Shown in pieces: positions 1 to 16,664 of a stretch of DNA of 64,000 nucleotides. Position 1 is the stretch's first letter. Each line of letters begins with the position of its first letter. The stretch is taken from the IMG/VR virus record IMGVR_UViG_3300008963_000001, positions 1-64,000 of that record; one strand, written 5' to 3'. Position numbers and translations under genes: made by a program. The notes under the pieces are model-generated. The model was not told where the DNA came from and searched no databases. It saw only the letters and a list, made by a program, of their open reading frames with translations. This DNA is from a virus.

Positions 1-1
1 C

Positions 2-154
2 GAGCCAGCTAACAATTATGCTGTGACAATTGACGGCAAACGTTGGAAAGTGTTCAGCTCAGAAAGAGCAGCACAGAAAGCAGCTAACACTATCAAGTCT
101 AAATACGGCAAGGATGCACAGGTCTTTCAAACTGGTTCTCCTGCTACAAACTAA
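2..154 (+). CDS. 3' end of a hypothetical protein (5'-truncated by window edge)
   Basis: Open frame from base 2 (EPANNYAVTIDGKRWKVF...SPATN) ending TAA at 152-154, followed by a terminator hairpin. Confidence 0.7.
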   Translation, partial: EPANNYAVTIDGKRWKVFSSERAAQKAANTIKSKYGKDAQVFQTGSPATN

Positions 155-194
155 AATAATAACTAGAAAAGCAATTAATAGTTACTACACTTTG

Positions 195-228
195 AAAAGC
201 CAGTCAAAACAATTGACTGGCTTTTTTT
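195..228 (+). terminator. Rho-independent terminator
   Basis: AAAAGCCAGTCA-aaacaat-TGACTGGCTTTT 12-bp stem followed by a T7 run; the A-run on the left makes it potentially bidirectional. Confidence 0.85.
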
Positions 229-279
229 ATGGCTATATAATAATAATTTATTTACTGGCTTTTTTTATAGCTATATAAT
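213..279 (+). promoter_or_regulatory. Two tandem sigma70-type promoters
   Basis: TTGACT(213-218)-N17-TATAAT(236-241) and TTTACT(251-256)-N17-TATAAT(274-279), upstream of SD AAGGAG and ATG 305. Confidence 0.75.
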
Positions 280-291
280 AATAATTTATTT
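216..291. repeat. 38-bp tandem duplication (one mismatch)
   Basis: 216-253 ACTGGCTTTTTTTATGGCTATATAATAATAATTTATTT vs 254-291 ACTGGCTTTTTTTATAGCTATATAATAATAATTTATTT. Confidence 0.95.
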
Positions 292-304
292 AAGGAGAAC
301 AACA

Positions 305-577
305 ATGGCTAAGATTTACGGCCCCGAAGAAAAGGCAAAACTAGAAAGATTGATTCGCGAAGGCTCGAACGTCCTGCGAGAAGTAGAAGATTTACAGGAA
401 GGCCTTAAAGAAACTGTAAAGGCAGTTGCGGAAGAACTGCAAATCAAACCTGCAATTATCAACAAGAGTATTAAAATTGCCCACAAAGACGAGTGGTACA
501 AGCATCAAGAAGAGTGGGAAGAAATTGAAGGCATTTTAGGCATTACAAAAAATTTACCGGAAGACAAAGACGAATAA
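305..577 (+). CDS. Small dsDNA-binding protein, GapR/DUF2312/T4 DsbA-like
   Basis: 90 aa helical protein, pattern L..LI.E..(x)..L.E.LKE.VKAV.EEL.IKP...IK; strong SD; next to DNA polymerase. Confidence 0.6.
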   Translation: MAKIYGPEEKAKLERLIREGSNVLREVEDLQEGLKETVKAVAEELQIKPAIINKSIKIAHKDEWYKHQEEWEEIEGILGITKNLPEDKDE

Positions 578-650
578 ATATCTTCACTAGCAAGGTAGGC
601 GAGGCCATAAACCGCAAGTCAGGTCAAGCGAGCCGGAAGTCGCAACAAGG
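575..650 (+). promoter_or_regulatory. TAAATA late-promoter box plus structured 5' leader of the DNA polymerase gene
   Basis: TAAATA at 575-580; GC-rich 582-643 segment able to fold CUUC/GAAG, GGC/GCC and GGCC/GGUC helices with a kink-turn-like GA/GA junction. Confidence 0.45.
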
Positions 651-662
651 AGAAAAAACAAT

Positions 663-3329
663 ATGAGCTATGTTGACGCGATCTATGATCGTGATCAAGA
701 TATGATTCGAGTCGTTGAAAGAAACGACAAGGGAGAGCGCCACTTTAAAGAATTCCCTGCACGTCATATCTTTTACTATGATGACCCCAAAGGTAAATTC
801 CAATCAATTTTTGGTACCCCTGTAAGTCGTGTTTCATGTAAGAATATCAAAGAAATGCGCAAAGAACTTGCGATACACTCTAATCGCAAATTATATGAAA
901 GCGATATAAATCCTATCTATAGATGTCTAGAAGACAACTATCTCAATCAAGATGCACCCAAACTAAATGTAGCGTTTTTCGATATCGAGGTGGATTTTGA
1001 TCCAGAGCGCGGCTATGCTGCACCAGAAGATGCATTTATGCCGATCACTGCAATTGCTGTTCATCTGCAATGGCTAGACACGCTCGTGTGTTTGGCTATT
1101 CCTCCCAAGACACTATCTATGGAAGAAGCAGAAAAGCAAGTGGAAGACTTCCCTAATACCATGCTTTTTGAAACAGAAGCAGAACTATTGGAAACATTCT
1201 TAGATTTAATCGAAGAAGCCGACGTGTTAAGTGGGTGGAACAGCGAAGGATTTGATATTCCCTATACTGTTAACCGCGTGACCAAAGTTCTCAGCAAAGA
1301 AGACACTCGAAGGTTTTGCCTGTGGAACCAACTGCCTAAAAAGCGCGAATACGAAAAGTTTGGTAAAACTTCACAGACATATGATCTTGTGGGGCGCATA
1401 CATGTCGACAGTTTAGAGCTGTACAGAAAATACAATTATGAAGAACGTCACACGTATCGACTGGACGCAATCGGCGAGCTGGAAGTAGGCGAAAAGAAAA
1501 CTGTCTACGAAGGCACACTGGATCAATTATACAACAACGACTTTCGCAAGTTTATCGAATACAACAGGCAGGACACTGCACTGCTAGACAAGTTAGATAA
1601 AAAACTAAAATTTATTGATCTTGCAAACACAATTGCGCACGAAAATACTGTGCTTATTCAAACTACTATGGGTGCTGTTGCTGTAACAGAACAGGCAATT
1701 ATCAATGAAGCACACCGCAGAGGCATGGTGGTGCCAAACAGAGTCAAACGCGAACCTGGCTCGGAGCCTGCGGCAGGTGCATATGTTGCATATCCAAAGA
1801 AAGGTATCCACGAATGGGTAGGATCAGTTGACATCAACTCGCTGTATCCGTCGGTGATTCGTGCGCTTAATATGGGTCCTGAAACAATTGTAGGCCAGTT
1901 GCGACAGGATGGTACACAGGCCATGATTGAAGCAGAAATGGGCAAAGGAAAGAGTTTCGCCAATGCTTGGGAAGGCAAGTTTGGCAGCATGGAATATGAT
2001 GCTGTTATGGCCAAGGAAGTTGGCAGAGAAGTAGCCATCGACTGGGAAAATGGCGAAAGTGACACTCTCAGTGCCGCGCAGATCTACGATCTTGTTTTTG
2101 AAAGCAACCAGCCTTGGATGTTGAGTGCCAATGGAACAATTTTTACGTATGAATTCGAAGGTGTGATACCAGGTTTGTTGGCGCGATGGTATAAAGAACG
2201 TAAAGAAATGCAGGCCAAACTAAAAGAAGTCAGAAATGCAGGTAACACAATTGAAGAAGAATACTGGGACAAACGGCAGTTGGTTAAAAAAATTAATCTA
2301 AACAGTTTGTATGGTGCAATTCTCAACCCCGGTTGCCGCTTCTTTGATAACCGAATCGGACAGAGTACCACACTCACCGGTCGCCAAATTACACGTCACA
2401 TGGCGGCTAAGATTAATGAAATCATCGCGGGAGAATATGACCACGTAGGCAAAGCAATAATATACGGCGACACCGACAGTGCCTATTTTTCTGCATATAC
2501 TACTCTACGCAAGGATATCGACAAGGGCAATATTCCGTGGGACGTTGATAATATAATCGAACTATACGACACAATAGGCGAAGAGGCCAACTCTACGTTT
2601 ACCAAGTTCATGCAGTACGCATTTCATTGTCCTAAAAAACACGGCGATATCATCAAATCCGGTCGAGAAATTGTAGCAAAAAAAGGACTGTTCATTACAA
2701 AAAAACGCTATGCAGTGCTGGTAGTAGACAACGAAGGCAAGCGGCTTGATGTAGAAGGCAAGTCCGGTAAGATCAAACCAATGGGACTTGATCTTAAGCG
2801 TTCGGACACGCCTGTCGTAATCCAAGAATTCCTTTCAACAGTGTTACAAATGGTACTAGAAGGCTATGAAAAAGAAGAAGTGCTAGAATATATTACTGAT
2901 TTTCGCACCGACTTCAAGGCCAGACCGGGTTGGGAAAAGGGCAGTCCTAAGAGAGCAAACAAAATTACAGAATACAAGGCCAAAGAAAAGAAAGCAGGCA
3001 AAGCAAACATGCCCGGGCACGTTCGAGCAAGCATCAATTGGAACACGCTTAAAAACATGCACGGAGACAAGTATTCGATGAGTATCACAGACGGTGCAAA
3101 AGTAATTGTTTGCAAACTAAAACAAAACCCCATGGCATACACGTCTGTGGCCTATCCTGTAGACGAACTAAGACTGCCAGACTGGTTTAAGGAATTGCCG
3201 TTCGATGACGCGGCAATGGAGAATTCAGTCATCGACGAAAAATTAAAAAATCTTATCGGAGAACTGGGTTGGGACATTGCGAGCACAAGATCCGATAATA
3301 CTTTTAACAAATTGTTCGATTTTGAATAA
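663..3329 (+). CDS. gp43: Family B DNA polymerase (T4 gp43-like)
   Basis: 888 aa; exonuclease motifs FFDIE, WNSEGFDIPY, YNRQD; polymerase motifs DINSLYPS, KINLNSLYG, YGDTDS; no intein-sized insertion. Confidence 0.97.
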   Translation: MSYVDAIYDRDQDMIRVVERNDKGERHFKEFPARHIFYYDDPKGKFQSIFGTPVSRVSCKNIKEMRKELAIHSNRKLYESDINPIYRCLEDNYLNQDAPKLNVAFFDIEVDFDPERGYAAPEDAFMPITAIAVHLQWLDTLVCLAIPPKTLSMEEAEKQVEDFPNTMLFETEAELLETFLDLIEEADVLSGWNSEGFDIPYTVNRVTKVLSKEDTRRFCLWNQLPKKREYEKFGKTSQTYDLVGRIHVDSLELYRKYNYEERHTYRLDAIGELEVGEKKTVYEGTLDQLYNNDFRKFIEYNRQDTALLDKLDKKLKFIDLANTIAHENTVLIQTTMGAVAVTEQAIINEAHRRGMVVPNRVKREPGSEPAAGAYVAYPKKGIHEWVGSVDINSLYPSVIRALNMGPETIVGQLRQDGTQAMIEAEMGKGKSFANAWEGKFGSMEYDAVMAKEVGREVAIDWENGESDTLSAAQIYDLVFESNQPWMLSANGTIFTYEFEGVIPGLLARWYKERKEMQAKLKEVRNAGNTIEEEYWDKRQLVKKINLNSLYGAILNPGCRFFDNRIGQSTTLTGRQITRHMAAKINEIIAGEYDHVGKAIIYGDTDSAYFSAYTTLRKDIDKGNIPWDVDNIIELYDTIGEEANSTFTKFMQYAFHCPKKHGDIIKSGREIVAKKGLFITKKRYAVLVVDNEGKRLDVEGKSGKIKPMGLDLKRSDTPVVIQEFLSTVLQMVLEGYEKEEVLEYITDFRTDFKARPGWEKGSPKRANKITEYKAKEKKAGKANMPGHVRASINWNTLKNMHGDKYSMSITDGAKVIVCKLKQNPMAYTSVAYPVDELRLPDWFKELPFDDAAMENSVIDEKLKNLIGELGWDIASTRSDNTFNKLFDFE

Positions 3330-3336
3330 AAAGTTG

Positions 3337-3365
3337 TTGACAAACAGCTCAAACCTAAATAAACT
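3337..3365 (+). promoter_or_regulatory. sigma70-type promoter with embedded TAAATA box
   Basis: TTGACA(3337-3342)-N17-TAAACT(3360-3365); TAAATA at 3356-3361; the -35 lies within an imperfect inverted repeat AGTTGTT-GACA-AACAGCT. Confidence 0.6.
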
Positions 3366-3389
3366 TGTACTACAAATGGAGAATAAATT

Positions 3390-4127
3390 ATGCAAGACAT
3401 CTTACAAGATATTGTAAGTCACACACAGAATCTCGGCTTCCTTCTTACTGTTAAAGTTGTAGGGGACGAAGACAAAACAGAAATGTTTTCAATGGCTGAC
3501 GATCGATCTGTTATTATGAGCGCAGAGACGCACAATCCTTATGCGGACATGATCGGTACATTTGGCATGCCACAGCTTAACAAGCTGAAGTATTTGTTGG
3601 ACGGTTCTGAGTACAAAGAAGATGCTAAGATCACAGTCACTACTGCCGAGCGCAACGGCGAAACCGTTCCTGTAGGTATTCATTTTGAAAACAAGGATGG
3701 CGATTTCAAGAACGATTACCGTTTTATGAATCAAGACATCATCAACGAAAAAATGAAGACCGTAAAGTTTCGTGGTGCGAATTGGAATGTAACTGTTGTT
3801 CCTAGTCTTGCTAGCGTACAGAGATTTAACTTTCAAGCAGGTGCTAACAGCGAACATCCTACATTTATTGCCCGTACAGAAGATAGCAATTTAAAGTTCA
3901 CGTTTGGCGATGCTAGCACGCACGGCGGCGAGTTTGTATTTGCAACAGACGTCGAAGGTACGCTAGATAAAGGCTGGGCTTGGCCTGTTGCACCTATTCT
4001 TGCAATTCTTAAAATTGCGGATGTCAACAATACCAAGATGAGTTTGAGTAACGACGGTGCAATTCAGATCGAGCTTGATTCAGGACTTGCAAACTACAAA
4101 TATATCATTCCTGCACAAGCGGCCTAA
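3390..4127 (+). CDS. gp45: Sliding clamp / processivity factor, T4 gp45-like
   Basis: 245 aa, size and alternating beta/alpha pattern of a two-domain clamp subunit; directly downstream of polB; SD GGAG. Confidence 0.65.
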   Translation: MQDILQDIVSHTQNLGFLLTVKVVGDEDKTEMFSMADDRSVIMSAETHNPYADMIGTFGMPQLNKLKYLLDGSEYKEDAKITVTTAERNGETVPVGIHFENKDGDFKNDYRFMNQDIINEKMKTVKFRGANWNVTVVPSLASVQRFNFQAGANSEHPTFIARTEDSNLKFTFGDASTHGGEFVFATDVEGTLDKGWAWPVAPILAILKIADVNNTKMSLSNDGAIQIELDSGLANYKYIIPAQAA

Positions 4128-4130
4128 ATA
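4125..4130 (+). promoter_or_regulatory. TAAATA late-promoter box 5 nt before the dpdA ATG
   Basis: TAAATA-atcat-ATG(4136); no SD visible upstream. Confidence 0.5.
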
Positions 4131-4135
4131 ATCAT

Positions 4136-5686
4136 ATGAAAAAACCAGTAGACTTAACTCCGTTACAAAAAGACTATGCTGTCTATTTGCCAGCAATAAG
4201 TAGTTTTTACTCTACATATATTGCAAAGCAGAGACAGAGCGAATTTGTACCTAAAGATCGTATCCCTGCAGGCTTTGATCGTGGCATCGAAGGCATGAAC
4301 TTCCTAAACCACGAAGCAGGTTATTACACATACGATTATGCTCTGTACTCTGCAGGCCATGCTCAATTAGATCCGCAGAAAACACTAGAATCAGACATAA
4401 TGATTCATGATCGAGACAAGAGTCGTTCTATGATTTTAGGCGACTCCGGCGGTTATCAGGTAGGTAAAGGCATTCTCAAATTTGATTGGCACAACTTCGA
4501 GGGTGCAGAAGCAAATGCAACTCGAAATAAAATACTCAATTGGCTAGAATTAACAGCAGACTGGTCAATGACGCTGGATGTTCCTACTTGGGCATGCGAC
4601 CATATTCATGCTCCGAAGACTGGATTAAAGAATTTCGAAGACTGCCTCGAAAAAACACGTTTTAATAACCAGTATTGGTTAGAACGTAGGCAAGGCAAAA
4701 CCAAATTCTTAAATGTCTTGCAGGGATCAGACTGGGACACAGCAGAACAGTGGTACGAAGGCGTAAAAGAATTTTCCGACGAAAGCGTTTGGGGCGACAA
4801 GGCCTGCGAAGGCTGGGCAATGGGCGGCGCTAACATGTGCAAAATGCCTATTACACTGCGCCGTTTGATTACTATGAAGTTTGACGGCATGTTAGAAGGC
4901 AAAGATTGGATGCACTTCTTGGGAACTGCCCAGTTAGATTGGAGTTGTTTCCTAACCAGCATTCAGCGACAGGTTCGCAAGCACTGCAACGAGAATTTTA
5001 CCATTTCATTTGATTGTGCTAGTCCGTTTATTGCAACAGCACACGGACTTGTTTATACTAATGCGCAACACAATGCCAAGCGGTGGGCAGTAATCATGGA
5101 CAAGGCTCCCGACAACAAGGCACTGGCAGAACGTCATGACATTCCGTTTCCGTTTGAAAGTGAAATTGGTAGGCGATTGAGCATTGCTGACGTCTGCCAC
5201 TATGCGCCTGGCATGCTCAACAAGATTGGCAAAGAAGGCAAAACATCATGGGACAGTTTTGCATATGCACTGATGATGTCGCACAATGTATACTGTCATA
5301 TCGTAGCAGTGCAACGTGCTAACAATCTCATGGACATCGAGCGTGCAAAGGCACAGCCCGACTGGAGACACTGGAAAAAGGTCAAACAAGCCGATAAGAG
5401 CGACGAGTATTCCGAATGGGTGCCGCGCAATATTTTATACTTCGATCGTTTTGTAGAAGAACTGTTTGAGTGCGAGACAAAACAAGCGGCGTTTGACATG
5501 ATCAAGCAGGCCGATAGTTTCTTAAAAGATCTAGAAGGTGCTAGACTACGCGGCGGTATTACAAACGAATTCAATCGCATGTTTGTGGAAGTAGATGACG
5601 AAGGCGACGAAATTCAACCGTGGACTGATGACAGGGAAGACGACGAACTCGACAAACTCGAAGGAGAGTTAAAGGAGAATGAATGA
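4136..5686 (+). CDS. dpdA: DpdA-type DNA 7-deazaguanine transglycosylase (TGT superfamily)
   Basis: 516 aa; TGT motifs ILGDSGGYQ, MTLDVP, NVLQG, GWAMGG, HFLG, ISFDCASP; clustered with folE, queE and a QueD-like gene. Confidence 0.85.
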   Translation: MKKPVDLTPLQKDYAVYLPAISSFYSTYIAKQRQSEFVPKDRIPAGFDRGIEGMNFLNHEAGYYTYDYALYSAGHAQLDPQKTLESDIMIHDRDKSRSMILGDSGGYQVGKGILKFDWHNFEGAEANATRNKILNWLELTADWSMTLDVPTWACDHIHAPKTGLKNFEDCLEKTRFNNQYWLERRQGKTKFLNVLQGSDWDTAEQWYEGVKEFSDESVWGDKACEGWAMGGANMCKMPITLRRLITMKFDGMLEGKDWMHFLGTAQLDWSCFLTSIQRQVRKHCNENFTISFDCASPFIATAHGLVYTNAQHNAKRWAVIMDKAPDNKALAERHDIPFPFESEIGRRLSIADVCHYAPGMLNKIGKEGKTSWDSFAYALMMSHNVYCHIVAVQRANNLMDIERAKAQPDWRHWKKVKQADKSDEYSEWVPRNILYFDRFVEELFECETKQAAFDMIKQADSFLKDLEGARLRGGITNEFNRMFVEVDDEGDEIQPWTDDREDDELDKLEGELKENE

Positions 5687-5865
5687 AGTCTGATCAAAGA
5701 TTAAAATTTCTACAAGAATCGCACGCATATCTCGACAAACAAATAGCAGAAGTTTATAGGTCTAGATCTTTTGAAGATTTAGAACTGGTAAAACTCAAGA
5801 AAGAAAAATTAAGGCTGAAAGATGCAATTAGACACTTACAACACTCAACCGAGCGCGTCGATTAG
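5683..5865 (+). CDS. Small coiled-coil protein, DUF465/YdcH-like
   Basis: 60 aa; L.E.H..LD.QI...; L..LKKEKLRLKD.I pattern; ATGA-coupled to dpdA. Confidence 0.65.
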   Translation: MKSDQRLKFLQESHAYLDKQIAEVYRSRSFEDLELVKLKKEKLRLKDAIRHLQHSTERVD

Positions 5866-6019
5866 GATCACACGACAGGATTTTGATCGATTACAAGAGC
5901 TTGTTAATGGGTTTAAGCAAATAGACGAAATTGAATGTACGCAGGAACAAAACAGCGTTCGATTTAAATTTTTCCTAGATGGTTATGAAATAAGTTTTAA
6001 GAGGACGCACAATGAATAG
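5822..6019 (+). CDS. Hypothetical protein
   Basis: 65 aa ORF filling the gap between neighbours in the operon; start uncertain. Confidence 0.55.
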   Translation: MQLDTYNTQPSASIRITRQDFDRLQELVNGFKQIDEIECTQEQNSVRFKFFLDGYEISFKRTHNE

Positions 6020-6524
6020 AGATTATGCTTCGGGGCAGTCGAACAAGGTTGTGTTTTTCCGCGGCGTTGAAGTCGAACACACTCCTGCATATGGTATGGA
6101 AACACTTTTTGTAACAGGCGTACAGGATGCTACAGAAATAGAAAAGCATTTAGAGGCGTGCAAGCATGTTTTCTTCGGTGCGAATCACAGTTTCAATCCA
6201 ACCGAACCTGCACACTACGAGCCGTGGGAAACAATGATTGAACACTTTTTACGCAAGGATATACTATGCACCTTAGATATCCCACTAAGCATAGCAGAAG
6301 AATTTTTAGAGGGACCTCTCGTAGAATATGACAACTTTATTCCTCAGATTAGAGTTGCTATTCCCTATATAAAACAGTATAATTATAACACTATGATTAA
6401 AATTGACGACAAAGATTTTCAAGCAACCAATCCCGGTGTTTGGTGTCATAGATTACACGATCTTATGAACAGCGATGTGTTTACGCCATGGCACGAGTAT
6501 AAAAATGATGAGGTTATCAAGTGA
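6012..6524 (+). CDS. Hypothetical protein in the dpd cluster (possible accessory modification enzyme)
   Basis: 170 aa; SD GAGG; enzyme-like motifs GVEVEH, FFGANHSF, TNPGVWCH; no family assigned. Confidence 0.75.
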   Translation: MNRDYASGQSNKVVFFRGVEVEHTPAYGMETLFVTGVQDATEIEKHLEACKHVFFGANHSFNPTEPAHYEPWETMIEHFLRKDILCTLDIPLSIAEEFLEGPLVEYDNFIPQIRVAIPYIKQYNYNTMIKIDDKDFQATNPGVWCHRLHDLMNSDVFTPWHEYKNDEVIK

Positions 6525-6922
6525 CAACTGTTAAGCAAGACGTTCGCCCAAAAAAAATGATCTGGGTAACATTTCAAAAAGAAGGCATTCACAAATATCC
6601 AGCGGCACTGACCGATCCAAAACTCGCAACAGGCGGCTGGGATGATGTAAGTTTTCTCGGCTATCCGCACAGGCATATTTTTAAGTTTAAAGTTTGGATT
6701 GAAGTGTTTACCGACGACCGTGATATTGAATTTATTCAGTTTAAACGCTGGCTAGAACGTCTTTACAGTGGCCAGGACGGTGATGTGTTAGCACTAGACT
6801 ATAAGAGTTGTGAAATGATTTCAGATGAACTTCATGAAATTATTTCGAACAAATATCCCAGCCGAGAGGTTTGGATTGAAGTCTCCGAAGACGGAGAAAA
6901 TGGATCTTTCATCAAATATTAA
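6521..6922 (+). CDS. dpdL: QueD/PTPS-fold paralog with LxxxHRHxF motif (DpdL-like)
   Basis: 133 aa; LGYPHRHIF (6656-6682) in place of the QueD CxxxHGH motif; DRDIEF and SCEMIS/VxEDGE tunnel-fold motifs. The DpdL assignment rests on recalled motif knowledge. Confidence 0.65.
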   Translation: MTTVKQDVRPKKMIWVTFQKEGIHKYPAALTDPKLATGGWDDVSFLGYPHRHIFKFKVWIEVFTDDRDIEFIQFKRWLERLYSGQDGDVLALDYKSCEMISDELHEIISNKYPSREVWIEVSEDGENGSFIKY

Positions 6923-6935
6923 TAAAGGAAAAGAG

Positions 6936-7133
6936 ATGAAGAAAGAAGTTTTTAAAATTTTTAACGACCTCGAAGAGTATCACGATTTTTGTCGCTTCGA
7001 ATTGCGTGAGTTTGATCCCGCTCACTTGTATCGCAAAAGCAACAGAAACTATAGAGCATTTTTGGCGTACAAAAATGCAAAACGCAACGGCCGAGGACGT
7101 AATTTTAATAAACACAATCACAATAGAAGATAA
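6936..7133 (+). CDS. Small basic hypothetical protein
   Basis: Start reassigned to ATG 6936 (SD AAGGA/AAGAG); MKKEVFKIF...NHNRR; TAATG-coupled to the next gene. Confidence 0.7.
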   Translation: MKKEVFKIFNDLEEYHDFCRFELREFDPAHLYRKSNRNYRAFLAYKNAKRNGRGRNFNKHNHNRR

Positions 7134-8245
7134 TGACAGTATATATTGTTGACATAGAAGCCGTAGAGACACGCTACACAGGACAGTGGAAGACACACGT
7201 GCCTCGCTTGCTAGGAAAGCGAGGATTTGATGTCTGTGTTGTTGAAGGTGCCAAGGACATTCCTCCTGCAACAACGCCTGGAGCGTTTTTAAACTTTGGC
7301 GGTACAAATGTATACAAAGCATCGCAAGTTGAACAGATCAGCAGAATGTTTTGTGACGGTAAAATCAAAGGAGGGGATCATTTTCTATTCACAGATGCAT
7401 GGCATCCGGGAATTATCAACCTCAAATATATGAGTGAGCTGCTGAATGTTCCTGTTACTATACACGCACTTTGGCATGCAGGCAGTTATGACGAACAAGA
7501 CTTTCTAGGTAGATTGATTGGCGACGCGCCTTGGGTAAGACATGCTGAAAAAAGCATGTACTATGCAATCGATCACAATTACTTTGCTACTGACTTTCAT
7601 GCAAAACTATTCCATAGAGAACTGTTAAACAACGGATATCCTACAGAGAATCCTTGGTTTGAAGAGGATGTGGAAGAACTGTACGACGATGGTAAAATTG
7701 TTCGCTCGGGCTGGCCCATGGAGTATTTAGAAGACACTCTTACGCCTTATAAACACATGGACAAGCGAGATCTTATCTTGTTCCCTCATCGTATTGCTCC
7801 TGAGAAACAGCCAGAAATATTTAACGATCTCAAACAAGCATTACCTCAATACGAGTTTGCAGTATGCCAAAGCTATGATTTAACCAAGAACGAGTATCAT
7901 AACATGCTAGGCGAAGCAAAACTTGTTTTTAGTGCTAATTTACAAGAAACACTCGGTATTAGTTGGTATGAGGGTGCACTTGTAGGCGCACTGCCGATGG
8001 TCCCTAATCGATTAAGCTATAGCGAAATGGCCGAGACTGAATTTTTATATCCCAGCGAGTGGACTACAAATTTTGCAAATTATATAGCACATAAAGAACA
8101 AATTTGTAATCAAATAGTTGATTACATGGAAAACTATAACAGCTATCTGCCTGCACTAAACAAACAGGTTTTTAGACTTAAAGATAACTTTTTTAGCAGT
8201 GATGCCTTGATAAAAAACTTAAAAGGGAAGAAATATTCATGTTAA
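7133..8245 (+). CDS. GT-B fold (GT4-like) glycosyltransferase
   Basis: 370 aa; FPHRIAPEKQP donor-binding motif and EX7E motif ETLGISWYE. Confidence 0.8.
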   Translation: MTVYIVDIEAVETRYTGQWKTHVPRLLGKRGFDVCVVEGAKDIPPATTPGAFLNFGGTNVYKASQVEQISRMFCDGKIKGGDHFLFTDAWHPGIINLKYMSELLNVPVTIHALWHAGSYDEQDFLGRLIGDAPWVRHAEKSMYYAIDHNYFATDFHAKLFHRELLNNGYPTENPWFEEDVEELYDDGKIVRSGWPMEYLEDTLTPYKHMDKRDLILFPHRIAPEKQPEIFNDLKQALPQYEFAVCQSYDLTKNEYHNMLGEAKLVFSANLQETLGISWYEGALVGALPMVPNRLSYSEMAETEFLYPSEWTTNFANYIAHKEQICNQIVDYMENYNSYLPALNKQVFRLKDNFFSSDALIKNLKGKKYSC

Positions 8246-8258
8246 AAATTATTATCTA

Positions 8259-8295
8259 TTGCAATTTTAAAAAGTATTGTATATAATACTAAATA
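8259..8295 (+). promoter_or_regulatory. sigma70-type promoter plus TAAATA late box upstream of folE
   Basis: TTGCAA(8259-8264)-N17-TATAAT(8282-8287); TAAATA 8290-8295. Confidence 0.7.
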
Positions 8296-8296
8296 T

Positions 8297-8325
8297 GATG
8301 AGACATCCTCGTCTATAACTCGGAG
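8297..8325 (+). ncRNA. Candidate compact cis-regulatory RNA (preQ1-I-like hairpin/pseudoknot) in the folE leader
   Basis: GAUGAG-ACAUC-CUCGUC hairpin followed by UAUAACUCGGAG overlapping the SD; alternative AGAC/GUCU stem whose loop UCC can pair with SD GGA. Confidence 0.35.
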
Positions 8326-8330
8326 AAACA

Positions 8331-9020
8331 ATGAAAAAATACGAAGAAATTATTCAGCGTTGCAAAAGCGCCGACAAGCGTTACTGGGCCGGAGACAATA
8401 TCTCCCGCTTGCTACAAAAAGGTGAGAAAGAACAGCTCATCGAAGAAGCTACAGAAGCATTTGAAACTGTTCTCGACACACTGATTATCGACCGTCACAA
8501 CGACCCCAACAGTAAAGGCACTGCGCGCCGTTTGGCCAAAATGTATTTCAATGAAATAATGGCAGGACGGTATGAACACTGTCCTGATGCAACTGCATTT
8601 CCCAACAACACCACAGACGAGCCGTATGATGGCATGTTGGTTGTTAGATCGGAGCTCAAAAGCATGTGCAGTCACCATCATCAGCCGGTAAGTGGTGTCG
8701 CTTATATAGGCATTCTTGCCGCTGATACTCTAATAGGTCTAAGCAAATACACCCGTATTGCACAATGGTGTGCTCGTCGAGGTACCCTACAGGAAGAGCT
8801 TGCTATGGAGATTGCTCGACAGATTATGCAGAACACTGGATCTAATGACGTAGGAGTTTACATCCAAGCTACGCACGGCTGTTGCGAAAACAGAGGAATT
8901 TCTGCGCACAGCAGTCTCACGCAAACAACAGTGTTAAAAGGCGCGTTTAAAGAGGACTCTGCTACTAAAAAAGAGTTTATGGATAATATCAAATTACAGC
9001 AAGAATTTGCTCCTAGATAA
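8331..9020 (+). CDS. folE: GTP cyclohydrolase I (type IA)
   Basis: 229 aa; TARRLAKMY, SMCSHHHQP, GLSKY, LQEEL, HGCCENRGI zinc and substrate motifs. Confidence 0.97.
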   Translation: MKKYEEIIQRCKSADKRYWAGDNISRLLQKGEKEQLIEEATEAFETVLDTLIIDRHNDPNSKGTARRLAKMYFNEIMAGRYEHCPDATAFPNNTTDEPYDGMLVVRSELKSMCSHHHQPVSGVAYIGILAADTLIGLSKYTRIAQWCARRGTLQEELAMEIARQIMQNTGSNDVGVYIQATHGCCENRGISAHSSLTQTTVLKGAFKEDSATKKEFMDNIKLQQEFAPR

Positions 9021-9057
9021 CTGTAACACAATGTAAAGGAACGCAGAGGATAGTAAA

Positions 9058-9504
9058 ATGTTTAAATTATTTTTAAAACTGCTTGATCGACTCGATAGAA
9101 AAAGAGTTATTACTGATAGAACAGGAAAGATCCCCTATCTTGTTAGATACTATTTGTTTCTCAAAGACAGGAAAAAGTTTCCCGTTAATGTAACTCTTCA
9201 CAAAGTTTTAGTTAGTGACGAGCCTACACTACACGATCATCCATGGGGATATGCTACATTTATTTTGAAAGGCGGTTATTACGAACACACACCAGAAGGA
9301 CGTTTTTGGAGAGGACCGGGACATTTTAGAATTCGCAGGCCCGACGATCTTCATTGGTTAGAGCTGCCTAGAAATACGGAAGGTAATGAAATTCCCTGTT
9401 GGAGTTTGTTTTTTATGGGGGAAAAGAAGCAGGATTGGGGATTCCTCAAAAACGGGGAATGGGTTCACAACGAAGTATATCTCAAGGAAAAATACAATGG
9501 TTAA
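9058..9504 (+). CDS. Cupin-fold protein
   Basis: 148 aa; LHDHPW...GGYYE and downstream LHWLEL cupin metal motifs; SD GAGG. Confidence 0.75.
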   Translation: MFKLFLKLLDRLDRKRVITDRTGKIPYLVRYYLFLKDRKKFPVNVTLHKVLVSDEPTLHDHPWGYATFILKGGYYEHTPEGRFWRGPGHFRIRRPDDLHWLELPRNTEGNEIPCWSLFFMGEKKQDWGFLKNGEWVHNEVYLKEKYNG

Positions 9505-10036
9505 GAAACACTATTACTCATGGCACGACATAGAAAACATGTGTGTAAATATTATTACTCAAATGTATGCCGATAACTGGCGGCCGGATTATATTGTCGG
9601 AATTACACGCGGCGGCAATGTTCCTGCTATAATTATATCTCATATGACTGGGATACGTTGCGAATCTTTGAAAATCAGCTTGCGTGACGGCGGTGGCGGA
9701 AGCGAAACCAACTGTTGGATGGCAGATGATGCTTTTGGATACGAATTCGACGAAGTCAACACTGAAAGTCGTACGGTTGATCCTAAAAAGATCTTAGTTG
9801 TAGACGACATAAACGACACAGGCGAAACTTTTAATTGGCTGATGCAAGATTGGGAATCGTCATGCAGACCGCAGGACGAACGCTGGCAATCAATTTGGGG
9901 TGACTCGGTAAGATTTGCAGTGCTTACGGAGAACCTATCTAGTCGTTTTGATCACGTGAATTACAGTGTGCACGAAGTCAACAAGGCGGAAGAAGATGTC
10001 TGGCTTTGCTATCCCTGGGAGGTGGTGGGGAAATGA
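9497..10036 (+). CDS. Purine phosphoribosyltransferase (Gpt/XGPRT-like)
   Basis: Start reassigned to ATG 9497; IVGITRGG and PRPP-binding motif ILVVDDINDTGET; C-terminal WLCYPWE. Confidence 0.9.
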   Translation: MVKKHYYSWHDIENMCVNIITQMYADNWRPDYIVGITRGGNVPAIIISHMTGIRCESLKISLRDGGGGSETNCWMADDAFGYEFDEVNTESRTVDPKKILVVDDINDTGETFNWLMQDWESSCRPQDERWQSIWGDSVRFAVLTENLSSRFDHVNYSVHEVNKAEEDVWLCYPWEVVGK

Positions 10037-10218
10037 ACAAATATGCAATTAGAATTCCCTTTGACGGCGACTACATTTTAGTTACCGAGGGAAACTGGAA
10101 TGACATTAAAGTTCGTACGTTTGATACCGAAGAAGAAGCAGAAGATCATGCCCGAATTTGGGGGGCTTCCGCAGAAGTTGTTGAGATTACCGAAGACAAG
10201 AACGACGATGAACGTTAA
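10033..10218 (+). CDS. Hypothetical protein
   Basis: Start reassigned to ATG 10033 (ATGA overlap with PRTase stop); MNKYAIRIPF... Confidence 0.65.
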   Translation: MNKYAIRIPFDGDYILVTEGNWNDIKVRTFDTEEEAEDHARIWGASAEVVEITEDKNDDER

Positions 10219-10576
10219 AGACACGCCGTGGTCAGATCCTCTGTGGGAAACCGATAGTTTTTTTGTATTTAAAGACGGGTTTCCCGTAACCAAAGGACAT
10301 TTACTTTTTGTACCAAAACACGACACGCCCTTGAGTATTTCGTCATGCTTGTATGCTGCATATAATCACGGCGAACAAATGATCGGCATGGGAGAGTGCG
10401 AAGGGTTTAACGTAGGTATGAATGTGGGAGAATCTGCTGGTCAAACCGTTATGTATCCGCACATTCATCTTATTCCTAGACGCACGGGCGACATGCAAGA
10501 CCCTAGGGGTGGTGTAAGACATGTAATTCCTGCTAAAGGAAATTACAAAATTGACAGTGCACACGAAAGGTGTTAA
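10208..10576 (+). CDS. HIT-family nucleotide hydrolase
   Basis: Start reassigned to ATG 10208; DGFPVTKGHLLFVPK, GFNVGMNVGESAGQTVMYPHIHLIPR (first His of the triad replaced by Tyr). Confidence 0.9.
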   Translation: MNVKDTPWSDPLWETDSFFVFKDGFPVTKGHLLFVPKHDTPLSISSCLYAAYNHGEQMIGMGECEGFNVGMNVGESAGQTVMYPHIHLIPRRTGDMQDPRGGVRHVIPAKGNYKIDSAHERC

Positions 10577-10585
10577 CATACTACT

Positions 10586-11437
10586 ATGAGTAAAATTAAA
10601 ATAGCAGAGCTGTTCTACAGTATTCAAGGTGAAGGTCGCTACATGGGTGTTCCTTCTATTTTCTTACGCACATTCGGTTGTAATTTTACATGCTCAGGCT
10701 TTAACATGCCTAAAGGCGAAAAAAGTATCGAAGCAGACGAGATTGCAAAACAAGTAGACGAGTACAACAGCTACGAAGAGTTGCCTATTATTAATACAGG
10801 ATGCGATTCATATGCATCTTGGCATCCAAAGTTTAAACATCTTTCGCCGCTTATGGAATCAGATGCTATTGCAGAAAAAATAGCCGAGTTGCTTCCTTTT
10901 AAACGGTGGGAGGACGAGCATCTTATTCTCACTGGCGGCGAGCCGTTGTTGGGCTGGCAAAAATCTTTTCCGGATCTGTTAGAGCATCCGAAGATGGCAG
11001 GTTTAAAAGCAATTACATTTGAGACTAACGGCACTCAGCCTTTGCATGATAATTTTAAAGATTATTTGCGCAAGTGGTTAGATGACGGGAAAGGCGAAAA
11101 AGAGATTACTTTTTCCGTAAGTGCAAAACTCAGCTGTTCAGGCGAATCTAGAGAAAAGGCCATCAAGCCAGAGGTTGTATGTGAGTATGAGGACTTTGGC
11201 CCAACATTCCTCAAGTTTGTAGTTGCAACACAAGAAGATGCAGAAGAAGCACTAGAAACTACTGATATATATCGTGCAGAAGGCTTTAAGGGTCATACCT
11301 ATCTCATGCCTGTAGGTGGTACTGCTGATGTTTACAATCTTAACAATCGACAGGTAGCTAAATTTGCAATGGAAAATGGCTTACGATATTCAGATAGATT
11401 GCAAGTTCCGCTGTTTGAAAATGAGTGGGGTACATAA
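10586..11437 (+). CDS. queE: 7-carboxy-7-deazaguanine synthase (radical SAM)
   Basis: 283 aa; ELFYSIQGEG, FLRTFGCN, LTGGEPLL, ETNGT, SVSAKL, YLMP, DRLQ; cluster motif CX3CX36C. Confidence 0.92.
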   Translation: MSKIKIAELFYSIQGEGRYMGVPSIFLRTFGCNFTCSGFNMPKGEKSIEADEIAKQVDEYNSYEELPIINTGCDSYASWHPKFKHLSPLMESDAIAEKIAELLPFKRWEDEHLILTGGEPLLGWQKSFPDLLEHPKMAGLKAITFETNGTQPLHDNFKDYLRKWLDDGKGEKEITFSVSAKLSCSGESREKAIKPEVVCEYEDFGPTFLKFVVATQEDAEEALETTDIYRAEGFKGHTYLMPVGGTADVYNLNNRQVAKFAMENGLRYSDRLQVPLFENEWGT

Positions 11438-11832
11438 TGAAGTGGTTAGAGCGCTTAACAGGCTTAGATAAAGTAAAACAAGAAGCACAAGAAAAAATTA
11501 ACGAAGCAGAAGCCATGCTGGAAAAGGCAGAGGAAAAAACTCTGTCGCCAAAAGAAAAGGCAACACGAAAGAAACAGCCTTGGGTCGGAGTTATTGACAC
11601 ACATGTCAACCAAGAAAACGTTCGGAATGGTTTTTTTGAACTGGACTGGAACAAGTATTTTATTGATGTGCTTCGTCAACAGGGTTATGGTCTAGATGGG
11701 GACTCCGACGAGGACATTGTAGATAGATGGTTTAGAGAACTTTGTGCTAATGTTGTTGTAGACGGAGATCTTGGTGGGCAGATCGACACAGGCATGATAG
11801 ACGTTGGAGCGGTAAAGAGAGATAATACATGA
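11437..11832 (+). CDS. Conserved hypothetical phage protein
   Basis: Start reassigned to ATG 11437 (TAATG); GFFELDWN and IVDRWF motifs. Confidence 0.75.
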   Translation: MKWLERLTGLDKVKQEAQEKINEAEAMLEKAEEKTLSPKEKATRKKQPWVGVIDTHVNQENVRNGFFELDWNKYFIDVLRQQGYGLDGDSDEDIVDRWFRELCANVVVDGDLGGQIDTGMIDVGAVKRDNT

Positions 11833-12827
11833 CATACATTCTTGTAGATACAGCAAATACTTTCTTTAGAGCACGGCATGTAATAAGAGGCGATGCCGAC
11901 ATTAAAGTAGGTATGGCATTTCATATTACTTTAAATTCTATAAGAAAAGCGTGGCAAGACTTCGATGGCAGTCATGTAGTATTCTGTTTAGAAGGCCGCA
12001 GTTGGCGTAAAGATTACTACGAGCCTTACAAGAGAAATCGTTCAGACGCACGAGCCGCTCTTACAGAAAAAGAACAAGAAGAAGATAAGATTTTTTGGGA
12101 AGCTTTCGATACCTTTAAAGATTTTATTAGCGATAAGACAAACTGTACAGTTTTACAACATAAACAATTAGAAGCAGACGACTTAATTGCAGGATGGATT
12201 CAGCAGCATCCCAACGACGATCACGTGATTATAAGCACAGACTCTGATTTTGCACAACTAATTGCATCCAATGTAAAACAGTACAACGGTGTGCAGGAAA
12301 TTACAACCACACACGAAGGGTATTTTGATGCCAAGGGCGGGCCTGTCGTTGATAAAAAAACAAAAGAAGCAAAGCCGGCACCAGACCCCGACTGGCTTTT
12401 GTTTGAGAAGTGTATTAGAGGCGATACAAGCGACAATGTTTTTTCTGCTTATCCGGGTGTAAGAAAGAAAGGAAGCAAGAACAAAGTAGGACTTATTGAA
12501 GCATACGAAGATAAGAATTCAAAAGGATTTAATTGGAACAATTTAATGTTACAGCGCTGGGTTGATCATAACGGCGAAGAGCATCGTGTGCTTGACGACT
12601 ATGAGAGAAATCGCAAACTTATTGATCTAACTGCTCAACCTGACAACATCAAAGAGATAATTAAAAACACCATCGACGAAGCTACAGGCAATGCAAAATC
12701 TGTAAGCCAAGTCGGTATACGTTTAATGAAATTTTGCCACGTTTGGGATCTACAAAAGATTTCCGATCAGGCACAAAGCTATGCAGAACCATTAAACGCA
12801 AAATATGGGCAGAAGGAAACAGCATGA
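11829..12827 (+). CDS. rnh: RNase H / 5'-3' flap endonuclease (T4 rnh-like)
   Basis: 332 aa; VDTANTFFR, EADDLIA, STDSDFAQL, GDTSDNV acidic motifs. Confidence 0.92.
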   Translation: MTYILVDTANTFFRARHVIRGDADIKVGMAFHITLNSIRKAWQDFDGSHVVFCLEGRSWRKDYYEPYKRNRSDARAALTEKEQEEDKIFWEAFDTFKDFISDKTNCTVLQHKQLEADDLIAGWIQQHPNDDHVIISTDSDFAQLIASNVKQYNGVQEITTTHEGYFDAKGGPVVDKKTKEAKPAPDPDWLLFEKCIRGDTSDNVFSAYPGVRKKGSKNKVGLIEAYEDKNSKGFNWNNLMLQRWVDHNGEEHRVLDDYERNRKLIDLTAQPDNIKEIIKNTIDEATGNAKSVSQVGIRLMKFCHVWDLQKISDQAQSYAEPLNAKYGQKETA

Positions 12828-13297
12828 CAGATATACACGCAAAACCAGTAATTGATAAAAAATTCTGGATTGTAGAAAAAGACGGAACAAAATTAGCTAC
12901 TCTTAGAAAAAACGAAGATAACAGATATGTTATGAGCAACGAGTCTGGAGTAGAAATTTTTAATAACGAAGAGAGCGTTATAGACAAGTTCGGTGAAAAC
13001 TTTTTCGTAAGCAAGGTAATTGGAGAAACAGGGGAAGAACCGCAGGAAGTGCACGGCTTTCCAGCAAGCACAGCACCTCATAACTCTATGTTCGACATAA
13101 AGAGAAGATTGCCTTTGTTTACAAAAAGCAAAGATTCAAAAAGCCTGTACTGTGCAGGTTATTATTTGATTCGGTTTGACAAAGGATGGGTGAAGAGCTT
13201 TTGCCCAAAACTAATAACTGTTCAAAGGTACGATTATAGAGGACCTTTTAAAACTGATTTAGAAATGAAACAGGCTCTGTCAAATGTCTCAAGGTAA
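12824..13297 (+). CDS. Conserved hypothetical phage protein
   Basis: Start reassigned to ATG 12824 (ATGA overlap); SLYCAGYY, SFCPKLIT motifs. Confidence 0.8.
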   Translation: MTDIHAKPVIDKKFWIVEKDGTKLATLRKNEDNRYVMSNESGVEIFNNEESVIDKFGENFFVSKVIGETGEEPQEVHGFPASTAPHNSMFDIKRRLPLFTKSKDSKSLYCAGYYLIRFDKGWVKSFCPKLITVQRYDYRGPFKTDLEMKQALSNVSR

Positions 13298-13532
13298 TAT
13301 TCCTGCAACACAACCTGCAATTGAGAAATTTATTAGACGAGTGTCTAGTGCCGATAAGTCCAATCAAAAAGAAATCCGTATGACCATACAGGAAGCAAGA
13401 GACCTAGTTCAAGATCTTGCCTTAATATCCAGTAACCTCGGAAAAGTTGTAGCACAAATTAACAACTCACTGTCCGAAATACAAAAAAGTTCAACTGAAG
13501 TAGACATTAAATTTGACGGAGGCGGTTTCTAA
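13284..13532 (+). CDS. Hypothetical protein
   Basis: 82 aa helical ORF ending DGGGF, in the operon. Confidence 0.75.
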   Translation: MSQGNIPATQPAIEKFIRRVSSADKSNQKEIRMTIQEARDLVQDLALISSNLGKVVAQINNSLSEIQKSSTEVDIKFDGGGF

Positions 13533-13537
13533 CAAGA

Positions 13538-13569
13538 TAAATAACTACGCACATAACTAGGATGCGTAG
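13538..13569 (+). promoter_or_regulatory. TAAATA late box followed by an SD-containing hairpin
   Basis: TAAATA 13538-13543; perfect 7-bp stem CTACGCA(13545-51)/TGCGTAG(13563-69) with loop CATAACTAGGA. Confidence 0.6.
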
Positions 13570-13574
13570 AAAAA

Positions 13575-13859
13575 ATGAGTAGACCTAAACCGACAGTGAT
13601 TTTAGAACACGCGAACAAAGAAAATTACAAAATAGAACAGATACTCGAAAGCGAAGCGATTTGGGCTGTTTTCTACAAAGGAAAACCGTTCAATCTAAAA
13701 AGCGGAAGTTTGCTGTCGAGCTATCCAGGACCTAAATACAAAAAAGTAAGTTTTAGCAATCCGGGACATGCAAGAAATCTAGCTAAAAAACTCAACGATT
13801 TGTTTAAAACAAACGACTTTAGTGTTTACAAACTAACCTCAGGAGAAGAGGAAAAATAA
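13575..13859 (+). CDS. Conserved hypothetical phage protein
   Basis: 94 aa; IWAVFY, PGPKYKKVSFSNPGHA motifs. Confidence 0.8.
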   Translation: MSRPKPTVILEHANKENYKIEQILESEAIWAVFYKGKPFNLKSGSLLSSYPGPKYKKVSFSNPGHARNLAKKLNDLFKTNDFSVYKLTSGEEEK

Positions 13860-14246
13860 ATGGATGTCAAAGATCAGCTAGTGGCTACATTTATGCAGGC
13901 TGCAGGCGATGATCATACAGACACTCGCAAAGCAAAAAAGAATAAAATAGATTGGTTTTATAATATAAGACCAGATGGTGGTTTAAGATTAACTGAATTT
14001 GGTTTTAAGTATTTAACAATTAAAGCAGAATTAAAATCTTATAAGGTAGATTTACCAAAAGACTTTTCAATAACTCCGCAGGTACTAGTATGGCTAGACA
14101 ATTTTATAGAATCTCCCTACTATCTAACAAAAAAACATATTACAGTATTCAAAGAGAGTTCTGCATTTGAATTATATCTGTTTTCCGGTGACATACGCAA
14201 ATACGGTTACAATAAAGCACTAGCAAAAAGATTAATCCAAGATTAA
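13860..14246 (+). CDS. Hypothetical protein
   Basis: 128 aa; GGLRLTEFG suggests a winged-helix-like element. Confidence 0.75.
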   Translation: MDVKDQLVATFMQAAGDDHTDTRKAKKNKIDWFYNIRPDGGLRLTEFGFKYLTIKAELKSYKVDLPKDFSITPQVLVWLDNFIESPYYLTKKHITVFKESSAFELYLFSGDIRKYGYNKALAKRLIQD

Positions 14247-14779: not shown

Positions 14780-15420
14780 TGAAAGCAATTAAACACACCG
14801 GCAAAATGAAGAACACGGGAAGCAAAGTTCTTGTAGCATTTAGAACACTTCCCGGAGAAAGCGACAAAGCATTGGTATTTAGAGTAGATACTCTACCCGA
14901 TTCCTATCACGATGCTCTTATGGATATGATCGAAACTGAACAGGTGCAACAGGCATTTGAACTGGGAGAAATGTTGTTTATTAGGAGTTTTCCAGACGGT
15001 AGACCTATGTTGCAGGCGCTTCGCGCAGATGATAGGTTGAAGAAGGTATCTACTGATGATGTCCTAATGACGCCGAATCCCACTTCTGAAGTTGTGCTAT
15101 CAGAGCTTAACAAAATGATTGCAGAGCAAAAGAATATAGCAGTCGATGACCTTTATACTTTTGTTAAGGGGGCGCCGAAAAAAGAAGAAGTGGAAGCTAG
15201 CAATAACACTGTTGCAACTGCGGAAACTTTACCATCCGACGAGCCAGCACCAGTTGCTGCAGACGCAGGTGAAGTTCTCGACGATGCAGCTCTTGCAAAG
15301 TCTTACCGCAGTCAGGCAGACGCTATGTACAAGGAAGCGGCTAGATTAAGAAGAGAAGCAGACGAACTAGATCCGCCTAAGAAGAAGACTACTAAAAAAT
15401 CATCAAAAGAGGAAGCTTAG
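14779..15420 (+). CDS. Conserved hypothetical phage protein
   Basis: 213 aa, TAATG-coupled; C-terminal predicted helix and basic tail. Confidence 0.8.
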   Translation: MKAIKHTGKMKNTGSKVLVAFRTLPGESDKALVFRVDTLPDSYHDALMDMIETEQVQQAFELGEMLFIRSFPDGRPMLQALRADDRLKKVSTDDVLMTPNPTSEVVLSELNKMIAEQKNIAVDDLYTFVKGAPKKEEVEASNNTVATAETLPSDEPAPVAADAGEVLDDAALAKSYRSQADAMYKEAARLRREADELDPPKKKTTKKSSKEEA

Positions 15421-16652: not shown

Positions 16653-16664
16653 CAATACCTCCAA

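Follow-up and report, generated by a model that had tools for sequence, protein, structure and literature searches.

The closest described relatives of the system analysed here are the DpdL-type clusters of the phages phiST and ACP17, whose core is proposed to yield 2'-deoxy-7-deazaguanine (dDG), a base found in phiST at complete replacement (PMC10516641). In these clusters the signature LxxxHRHxF, which replaces the CxxxHGH of QueD, defines DpdL, the proposed decarboxylase of 7-carboxy-7-deazaguanine (CDG) (Cui et al. 2023, NAR; PMC10516641), and it was suggested that further, 'other unknown enzymes' may be needed for dDG formation (PMC10516641). The DNA of the Pseudomonas jumbo phage PA5oct resists restriction enzymes with G-containing sites (PMC12191111), and this phage is restricted by END nucleases sensing modified G, with no mass-spectrometric identity of the base given (PMC12191111). 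Here, we analysed a stretch of 64,000 nucleotides (the window), which is the first 64 kb of the 128,677-bp IMG/VR viral contig IMGVR_UViG_3300008963_000001, and focused on positions 4136-11437, a single co-directional run of genes 3' of polB and a clamp-like gene. We consider it likely that this module replaces guanine in the phage's own DNA by a 7-deazaguanine base, following the published DpdL route.

A preliminary description of the window, made from the sequence alone, had interpreted the run as a cluster for 7-deazaguanine modification of DNA that has DpdA and DpdL but no QueC, a view that is borne out by fold, by the LxxxHRHxF motif and by profile searches. All the genes it named are present on the + strand, as determined from the list of open reading frames (ORFs) together with Pfam, PHROG and NCBIfam searches, motifs and models. 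The core genes are:

4136-5686, + strand: DpdA-like guanine transglycosylase, divergent, with a predicted tRNA-guanine transglycosylase (TGT) fold, 516 aa (p516); from a motif, an AlphaFold2 (AF2) model, Foldseek and hhalign
6521-6922, + strand: DpdL, a QueD paralog of 133 aa and proposed CDG decarboxylase; LGYPHRHIF, phrog_17812 at E 3.6e-34
8331-9020, + strand: FolE, GTP cyclohydrolase I; PF01227 at 137.9 bits against a cut-off of 27, phrog_2197 at E 3.9e-45
10586-11437, + strand: QueE-like radical-SAM enzyme (CDG synthase); phrog_2076 at E 1.2e-53

The LGYPHRHIF segment of DpdL (residues 46-54) fits the LxxxHRHxF signature, and the protein is 57% identical to the DpdL of ACP17 (E 2e-36) and 34% identical to CGPG_00067 of phiST (E 4e-8). 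Its genomic context is likewise that of a DpdL, as DpdA, FolE and QueE are found with it in the absence of QueC, with QueD seen in relatives only. FolE scores under the cut-off of the corresponding NCBIfam equivalog (136 vs 202 bits). The QueE-like protein matches PF04055 (30.5 bits vs 29.5), is covered over its full length by the phrog_2076 'QueE-like' match and is 49% identical to QueE of the Synechococcus phage BUCT-ZZ01; it falls under the cut-off of all NCBIfam QueE models (best 51.6 bits vs 260). Within its residues ~32-73 (window 10679-10804) we observed C32-x3-C36 with no cysteine at the canonical +3 position (CX3CX2C or CX14CX2C), an unusual spacing which the BUCT-ZZ01 QueE may share.

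Pfam, PHROG and NCBIfam searches with p516 gave no match, and neither did phmmer against PDB sequences. The protein carries the motif LGDSGGYQ at residues 101-108 and belongs to a large family, with 879 relatives at E <= 0.001 among 1.8 billion cluster representatives (representatives at 50%) and at least 7,700 clusters at 90% identity in public metagenomes, the latter figure applying equally to the family of the glycosyltransferase described below. Among 64 diverse relatives D103, S104, G106, H260 and D293 are invariant, and the family consensus reads GDSGGFQI ... LDxPT ... FLNVLQG ... HxLG ... SYDxSSPF; just 4 of these 64 give Pfam TGT matches, which are weak (best E 0.007). The family profile, when run against PDB sequences, retrieved almost only TGT chains, with the motif aligned on the DSGGYQ of Z. 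mobilis TGT, at a marginal E of ~0.5, and the fold therefore had to come from a model. The AF2 model (pLDDT 91.8) found tRNA-guanine transglycosylases in all of its best 50 Foldseek matches in the PDB (E ~1e-8, probability 1.00), and its VIA-align comparison to TGT gave Z 18.7 and a root-mean-square deviation of 4.5 for ~303 aligned residues, covering model residues ~11-438. With respect to described phage enzymes, hhalign aligned the p516 profile with the 424-aa DpdA of ACP17 (96.6% probability, E 6e-10, 180 columns) and with a 416-aa protein of BUCT-ZZ01 (94.2% probability); against DpdA3 of phiST (CGPG_00065) blastp gave no significant match and hhalign reached 66.6% over 84 columns.

Similar to bacterial TGT (PF01702) and the DpdA of Dpd systems, p516 would thus combine a (beta/alpha)8 fold with the DSGGxQ motif of the catalytic Asp, and the 'LD' substrate Asp, the 'QG' and the 'FDC..P'-like segments align as well. 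In contrast to them, p516 is ~15% identical and lies under the Pfam threshold, the Cys pattern of the Zn site is unconserved in the family consensus (SYDxSSPF), and the protein has ~95 extra N-terminal residues and a helical, acidic C-terminal extension of ~110 residues. Model and sequence comparison together point to a DpdA-like member of the TGT superfamily which is nearest to ACP17 DpdA, outside DpdA3 and under the Pfam threshold, and genomic context predicts DNA, not tRNA, as its substrate.

At its C-terminus (residues 471-516, window 5546-5686) p516 bears a strongly acidic tail (DDEGDE...DDREDDELD) that is disordered over residues 471-500 and leads into a short helix. In 14 of the 64 relatives the last 45 residues carry a net charge of -8 or below. 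By analogy, this tail recalls the acidic ends through which proteins of the single-stranded DNA-binding protein (SSB) type are tethered to replisomes, and the p516 gene lies right behind the clamp-like gene.

The preliminary description had also stated that queC, queD and queF are missing from the 64 kb. Indeed, QueC (PF06508), PTPS/QueD (PF01242) and QueF have no match anywhere in the 128,677-bp contig, and tblastn with the QueD of relatives found none there either. As CheckV rates this contig at 36% of a genome, gene absences on it are weak evidence; the same rating makes the phage probably a jumbo phage of ~350 kb. Ten related records were searched, nine of them viral contigs that each carry a homolog of p516 and the tenth the complete genome of PA5oct. 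A gene of the PTPS family is located 42-52 kb upstream of dpdA in five of the five related contigs that reach that far (G002 (L087), G004 (L086), G005 (L092), G006 (L090) and G007 (L091)), and no PTPS gene is present in the contigs that end sooner on that side (G001, G003, G008, G009) or in the contig of the window, which has 4.1 kb upstream. PA5oct possesses two PTPS genes ~50 kb from its cluster. Since a distal QueD occurs in every related contig that is long enough and in none of the shorter ones, the lack of a canonical queD on the contig of the window is very probably a contig-end effect, so that this part of the earlier statement holds for the contig as such and probably does not extend to the phage. 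The near-constant distance from dpdA further indicates that the deazaguanine pathway of this phage clade is split between two distant genome regions.

The QueD genes of the relatives carry CxxxHGY, as do the in-cluster QueDs of phiST, ACP17 and BUCT-ZZ01. DpdL had been considered as a substitute for QueD, an idea we rejected as the relatives carry a separate QueD of canonical type upstream. In turn, QueC is absent from the contig, from the four large relatives searched and from the complete PA5oct genome, and the pathway should consequently stop before preQ0, at CDG or 7-deazaguanine, in agreement with the earlier proposal of a CDG- or 7-deazaguanine-derived base.

Besides the core, the run contains an accessory set:

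6012-6524, + strand: p170, a conserved protein of 170 aa; from its conservation with dpdL and the glycosyltransferase (GT)
6825-7133, likely start 6936, + strand: small basic protein, isoelectric point (pI) 10.3; conserved from ~M38
7133-8245, + strand: GT4-like glycosyltransferase of predicted GT-B fold, 370 aa (p370); from an AF2 model and Foldseek
9058-9504, + strand: cupin-like protein, phage 'cysteine dioxygenase' family; phrog_4786 at E 1.5e-34
9497-10036, ORF opening at 9386, + strand: Gpt-like (xanthine-guanine) phosphoribosyltransferase (PRTase); PF00156 at 42 bits vs 26.3
10100-10576, + strand: HIT-family nucleotide hydrolase/transferase; PF01230 at 40.5 bits vs 21.5

The arrangement of the cluster is not due to chance, as its gene order recurs in PA5oct and in 80 IMG/VR loci, namely those with DpdA-like genes 65-85% identical. 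In these loci, polB, the clamp, dpdA, a variable stretch, p170, dpdL, the small basic protein and the GT are followed by FolE, the cupin, the PRTase, HIT, queE, a 135-aa protein (p135) and FEN. Present in all 80, dpdA is the most conserved element, and p170 (74 of the 80), dpdL, the small basic protein (58 of the 80, between dpdL and the GT) and the GT occur in almost every locus that extends far enough to contain them. The cupin is found in 35 and HIT in 25 of the 80 loci, and the stretch between dpdA and p170 varies in length.

Compared with phiST and ACP17 (PMC10516641), the window shares a DpdA-family enzyme, DpdL, FolE and QueE without QueC, a neighbouring DNA polymerase and, for its clade as seen in relatives only, a CxxxHGY QueD. 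It differs from both in that QueD of the clade lies ~45 kb away and not in the cluster, and from phiST in that its transglycosylase is not DpdA3 but a 516-aa form distantly related to ACP17 DpdA, and in that phiST is devoid of GT4, p170, cupin, Gpt-like PRTase and HIT and has a MazG-like gene instead. The position directly behind polB, which the preliminary description had pointed out, is confirmed but not novel, having been described in phiST (PMC10516641) and recurring in ACP17, PA5oct and Phosso.

The nearest type of cultured relative is PA5oct (Wroclawvirus), whose EST35_0311-0325 are syntenic and encode, in order, polB, a clamp-like protein, a 540-aa DpdA-like protein (42% identity), GT (41%), DpdL (57%), a QueE-like protein and RNaseH/FEN (55%), with QueD copies distant from the cluster and no QueC. 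In contrast to the window, the PA5oct cluster lacks FolE, cupin and HIT, shows for the PRTase ORF only a weak match of 59 residues (E 4e-5), which falls in the segment preceding the PRTase domain, has its p170 homolog ~27 kb away, and has polB (L001 2605-7831) in two ORFs split by a Hef-like homing endonuclease gene. In the T4-like cyanophage BUCT-ZZ01 (Synechococcus, ON615601) a single run encodes QueE (49%), a xanthine-guanine PRTase (27%), QueD, FolE, a DpdA-like protein of 416 aa, DpdL (37%) and GT (24%); this phage belongs to another family and host, has its QueD in the cluster and is devoid of cupin, HIT and p170. Finally, Phosso, a 469-kb Sinorhizobium phage (L088), has a DpdL-GT-FolE-QueE block behind polB and clamp, with the difference that its DpdA-like gene is ~170 kb off (PV764938.1 323225-324610) and that a gene for a 177-aa 'glycosylase' occupies the slot between clamp and dpdL.

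From the folds, motifs, homologies, synteny and co-occurrence described above we infer the enzymatic steps, the final base and the salvage role of the PRTase as follows. FolE would convert GTP to dihydroneopterin triphosphate (H2NTP), from which the canonical QueD encoded distally (~45 kb upstream in relatives) would form 6-carboxytetrahydropterin (CPH4), and the QueE-like radical-SAM enzyme would turn the latter into CDG. DpdL, a QueD paralog without the catalytic Cys, would decarboxylate CDG to 7-deazaguanine, which p516 would exchange for guanine in newly made phage DNA, and the exchanged base would shield the phage DNA from G-reading restriction enzymes. In the most plausible and simplest account of the PRTase, the guanine freed by each exchange would be returned via GMP to GTP and thereby feed FolE. 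By analogy with phiST, plain dDG would be the default end product.

Several points weigh against this reading. Neither p516 nor the whole contig translated in six frames reaches the gathering threshold of Pfam TGT (PF01702), and as p516 also shows no detectable similarity to DpdA3 of phiST, homology does not reveal its substrate. The contig of the window lacks QueD, whose presence we infer from relatives. FolE, cupin, PRTase and HIT are lost in some full-length loci (e.g. L033, L036, L058, L075, L082). Decarboxylation of CDG by DpdL is a published proposal only (PMC10516641), and DpdL and DpdA of phiST or ACP17 yielded no dDG in E. coli (PMC10516641). In addition, the tight linkage of GT and DpdL hints at an end product other than dDG, since plain 7-deazaguanine offers a GT no obvious acceptor.

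The GT p370 has no match at E <= 0.01 in Pfam (including Glycos_transf_1), PHROG or NCBIfam. Its AF2 model (pLDDT 83) retrieved BshA, glycogen synthase, MshA and PimA from the PDB with Foldseek (E 2e-9 to 1e-6, TM up to 0.64), with a tetrahydrobiopterin glucosyltransferase further down the match list, and superimposes on an ACP17 'Glycosyl transferase family 1' protein (BFVD) with TM 0.82/0.88. Sequence identity is 41% to PA5oct EST35_0317, 35% to the ACP17 and 49% to the Phosso homolog. The EX7E motif of retaining GT4 enzymes is present as E272-x7-E280, with E280 invariant and E272 retained in 90% or more of the 26 relatives aligned, a conservation suggesting that the enzyme is probably active. 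One GT homolog (L034:12680-13774) contains an in-frame stop and may represent a pseudogene, a sequencing error or recoding.

DpdL is present in all 18 cultured-phage records whose GT homolog spans 80% or more of the query, and in seven cultured lineages (the PA5oct group, ACP17, Phosso, Xanthomonas phages BUDD and X1, Burkholderia phage BCSR5 and Synechococcus phage BUCT-ZZ01) GT and dpdL are adjacent or at most 3 kb apart, in both gene orders. DpdL phages without the GT are phiST and its kin, RHph_I1_18, Ahp1, D479, Bakedbeans and MA9V-3. As for p170, it has no match in Pfam, PHROG or NCBIfam and no usable match in the ESM Atlas, and its profile found in the PDB only a chance match to LacI (E 1.9). 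In cultured phages it is confined to ACP17 and the PA5oct-like group, always together with DpdL and GT, and three lineages combine it with the GT. Kinship with the Phosso 'glycosylase', the 174-aa protein of BUCT-ZZ01 or phiST CGPG_00066 was considered for p170 and found for none of them by hhalign. GT4 and p170 are true partners of DpdL, conserved along with it, and they may be the 'other unknown enzymes' of Cui et al., for which, in ACP17-type clusters, they would be the obvious candidates.

The recurrent linkage of GT4 to DpdL is the best argument for the possibility, raised in the preliminary description, of further chemistry beyond the known bases. Overall, we regard chemistry beyond dDG on the final base as conceivable but improbable. 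The corresponding alternative to plain dDG is that the final base is a further-derivatised, e.g. sugar-bearing, 7-deazaguanine, with GT4, possibly together with p170, glycosylating the free base or the base in DNA. The proximity of GT4 to dpdL in both orders across seven lineages argues for selection on the linkage, and the constant company of DpdL in the GT-bearing records, the conserved EX7E of a probably active enzyme, the lack of dDG from DpdL and DpdA of the GT-bearing ACP17 in E. coli and the restriction of PA5oct by nucleases sensing hypermodified DNA are all consistent with this idea. Also in its favour, the GT4-type GTDC1 glycosylates queuosine in tRNA, and natural products of the huimycin type bear N-glycosylated 7-deazaguanine. 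Against it, 7-deazaguanine lacks a hydroxyl group that could accept a sugar, and attachment through N2 or as a carboxyl ester would be uncommon for DNA; phiST makes dDG without such a GT; and the GT family is acidic (pI 4.8-6.3), which is weakly more typical of a small-molecule than of a DNA-binding enzyme. Moreover, the literature searched, of which coverage was incomplete, contains no report of a sugar-bearing deazaguanine DNA base and no description of the GT-DpdL pair, leaving the novelty of either unproven. Weighing both sides, a derivatised final base is a tentative option, and the more specific proposition that phages with DpdL and GT4 carry a glycosylated or GT-dependent 7-deazaguanine derivative, with GT4 and p170 as the missing enzymes, is doubtful; alternatively, the GT may have an unrelated function.

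Alternatively, GT4, p170, cupin, PRTase and HIT could be mere passengers in a hot spot of the replication module, in which case the cluster would be a dDG system of the phiST type. For the cupin and HIT this has some appeal: cupin homologs were found in 95 phage records, most of them from actinophages and siphophages that lack deazaguanine genes, and HIT, whose motif YPHIHLIPR keeps the two C-terminal histidines of HxHxHxx, has as homologs the ordinary HIT proteins of actinophages, a family likewise widespread in phages that have no deazaguanine genes. We therefore assign no pathway role to either, and the accessory set announced in the preliminary description, while real and conserved, is not specific to deazaguanine clusters in these two families. 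Consistent with passengers, the presence of FolE, cupin, PRTase and HIT varies among close relatives, as does the spacing between dpdA and p170. Hitch-hiking, however, hardly explains the adjacency of GT and DpdL across groups as unrelated as a T4-like cyanophage, a Busanvirus, Xanthomonas and Burkholderia phages and three jumbo lineages, nor the restriction of p170 in cultured phages to genomes with DpdL and GT, and the PRTase recurs in the BUCT-ZZ01 cluster. We consider it unlikely that the whole set has been carried along in this way.

The homology of the PRTase begins at M38 (9497) of its ORF, and from residue 38 on it is 27% identical (E 5e-12) to the 'xanthine-guanine phosphoribosyltransferase' of BUCT-ZZ01, with a match to the NF006613 xanthine PRTase model (E 1.5e-9, 37.6 bits vs a cut-off of 138). 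As the gene for this Gpt-like homolog sits between QueE and QueD inside the BUCT-ZZ01 cluster, the link of the PRTase to the deazaguanine pathway recurs independently. Such a purine PRTase in both clusters, the embedding of the cluster in the replication module, the MazG-like pyrophosphatase of the phiST cluster and the complete replacement in phiST-type phages would also fit a pre-replicative route, in which the PRTase makes a 7-deazaguanine or CDG ribonucleotide (toyocamycin-like) that, after reduction and phosphorylation, reaches polB as a dNTP, with HIT clearing nucleotides. HIT enzymes are not known to act as dNTP pyrophosphatases. This route is very improbable, because the TGT-fold base-exchange enzyme is the most conserved element, present in all 80 loci, and the PRTase is dispensable in relatives, being missing from several loci (e.g. 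L033, L058, L075 and L082) which keep dpdA, dpdL, GT and queE; in addition, insertion was judged post-replicative in all known cases (PMC10516641). Replacement of guanine by a 7-deazaguanine base through post-replicative exchange hence remains our preferred reading.

The small basic protein (102 aa, p102) has no match in Pfam, PHROG or NCBIfam, and its C-terminus reads RNGRGRNFNKHNHNRR. Its annotated ORF overlaps the 3' end of dpdL, matches in related loci begin at query residues 25-41, and a GGA-rich stretch lies upstream of 6936. Because the conserved part begins near M38, the protein probably starts there in truth, i.e. at 6936.

The remaining genes of the run and its flanks are:

663-3329, + strand: family B DNA polymerase (polB), 888 aa in a single ORF; PF00136 at 117.7 bits, PF03104 at 68.5 bits; context
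3390-4127, + strand: sliding-clamp-like protein, putative clamp fold, without Pfam match; context
5683-5865, + strand: small DUF465 protein in the variable part of the cluster; PF04325 at E 6e-11
5822-6019, + strand: ORF of 65 aa, without family match
11425-12827, + strand: gene of 135 aa, then 5'-3' exonuclease/RNase H (11829-12827); PF02739 at 73.8 bits; context

Between 663 and 12827 all genes share the + strand, and neighbours overlap or are separated by short gaps. The window polB is 51% identical to that of PA5oct and 50% to that of Phosso, and the clamp-like protein is 34% identical to the Phosso 'DNA polymerase III sliding clamp beta' and 35% to PA5oct EST35_0314. With the exonuclease/RNase H (11829-12827), which is 55% identical to the PA5oct RNaseH, the replication module resumes. 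Within the variable part, tblastn of the 80 related loci gave no match for the DUF465 protein, and the 65-aa ORF at 5822-6019 is unconserved, absent from the same loci and possibly not a real gene. The sole sizeable spacer of the cluster is the 85-nt gap 5' of folE (8246-8330), in which Rfam at E <= 1 detected no riboswitch or other family; over positions 1-14000 the same search gave no preQ1 or other riboswitch, the sole match being a chance-level sRNA at 146-227. Further downstream (~15400-16700), both the coding strand and the GC skew change over at about 15.4-16 kb, where the + strand replication/modification module stops and a long minus-strand block starts. The stretch is present in three soil-metagenome DNA runs, a possible source, with no RNA run among the holders listed.

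The DpdL-type core, its position beside polB and the G-modification of PA5oct-type phages are already known. New within the literature searched are a DpdA family that is invisible to Pfam and was recognised by its predicted fold, the linkage of GT4 with DpdL (and p170) in several lineages, the repeated occurrence of a Gpt-like PRTase and an explanation for the 'missing' QueD.

Modification of DNA by 7-deazaguanines is a major phage counter-defence; its least understood branch is the one with DpdL, whose decarboxylase step has never been reconstituted. Taken together, our analysis brings to light an abundant metagenomic transglycosylase family overlooked by Pfam and provides a short list of conserved partners for such a reconstitution, namely GT4, p170 and the Gpt-like PRTase, with PA5oct and ACP17 as cultured and tractable relatives. 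As PA5oct is under consideration for phage therapy, the identity of its base matters for its sensitivity to restriction and END nucleases as well as for sequencing and cloning artefacts. If the GT does act on the base, the product would represent a new class, a purine hypermodification of phage DNA that for the first time bears a sugar, and GT4 and p170 would account for the failure of DpdA and DpdL to yield a product by themselves in E. coli.

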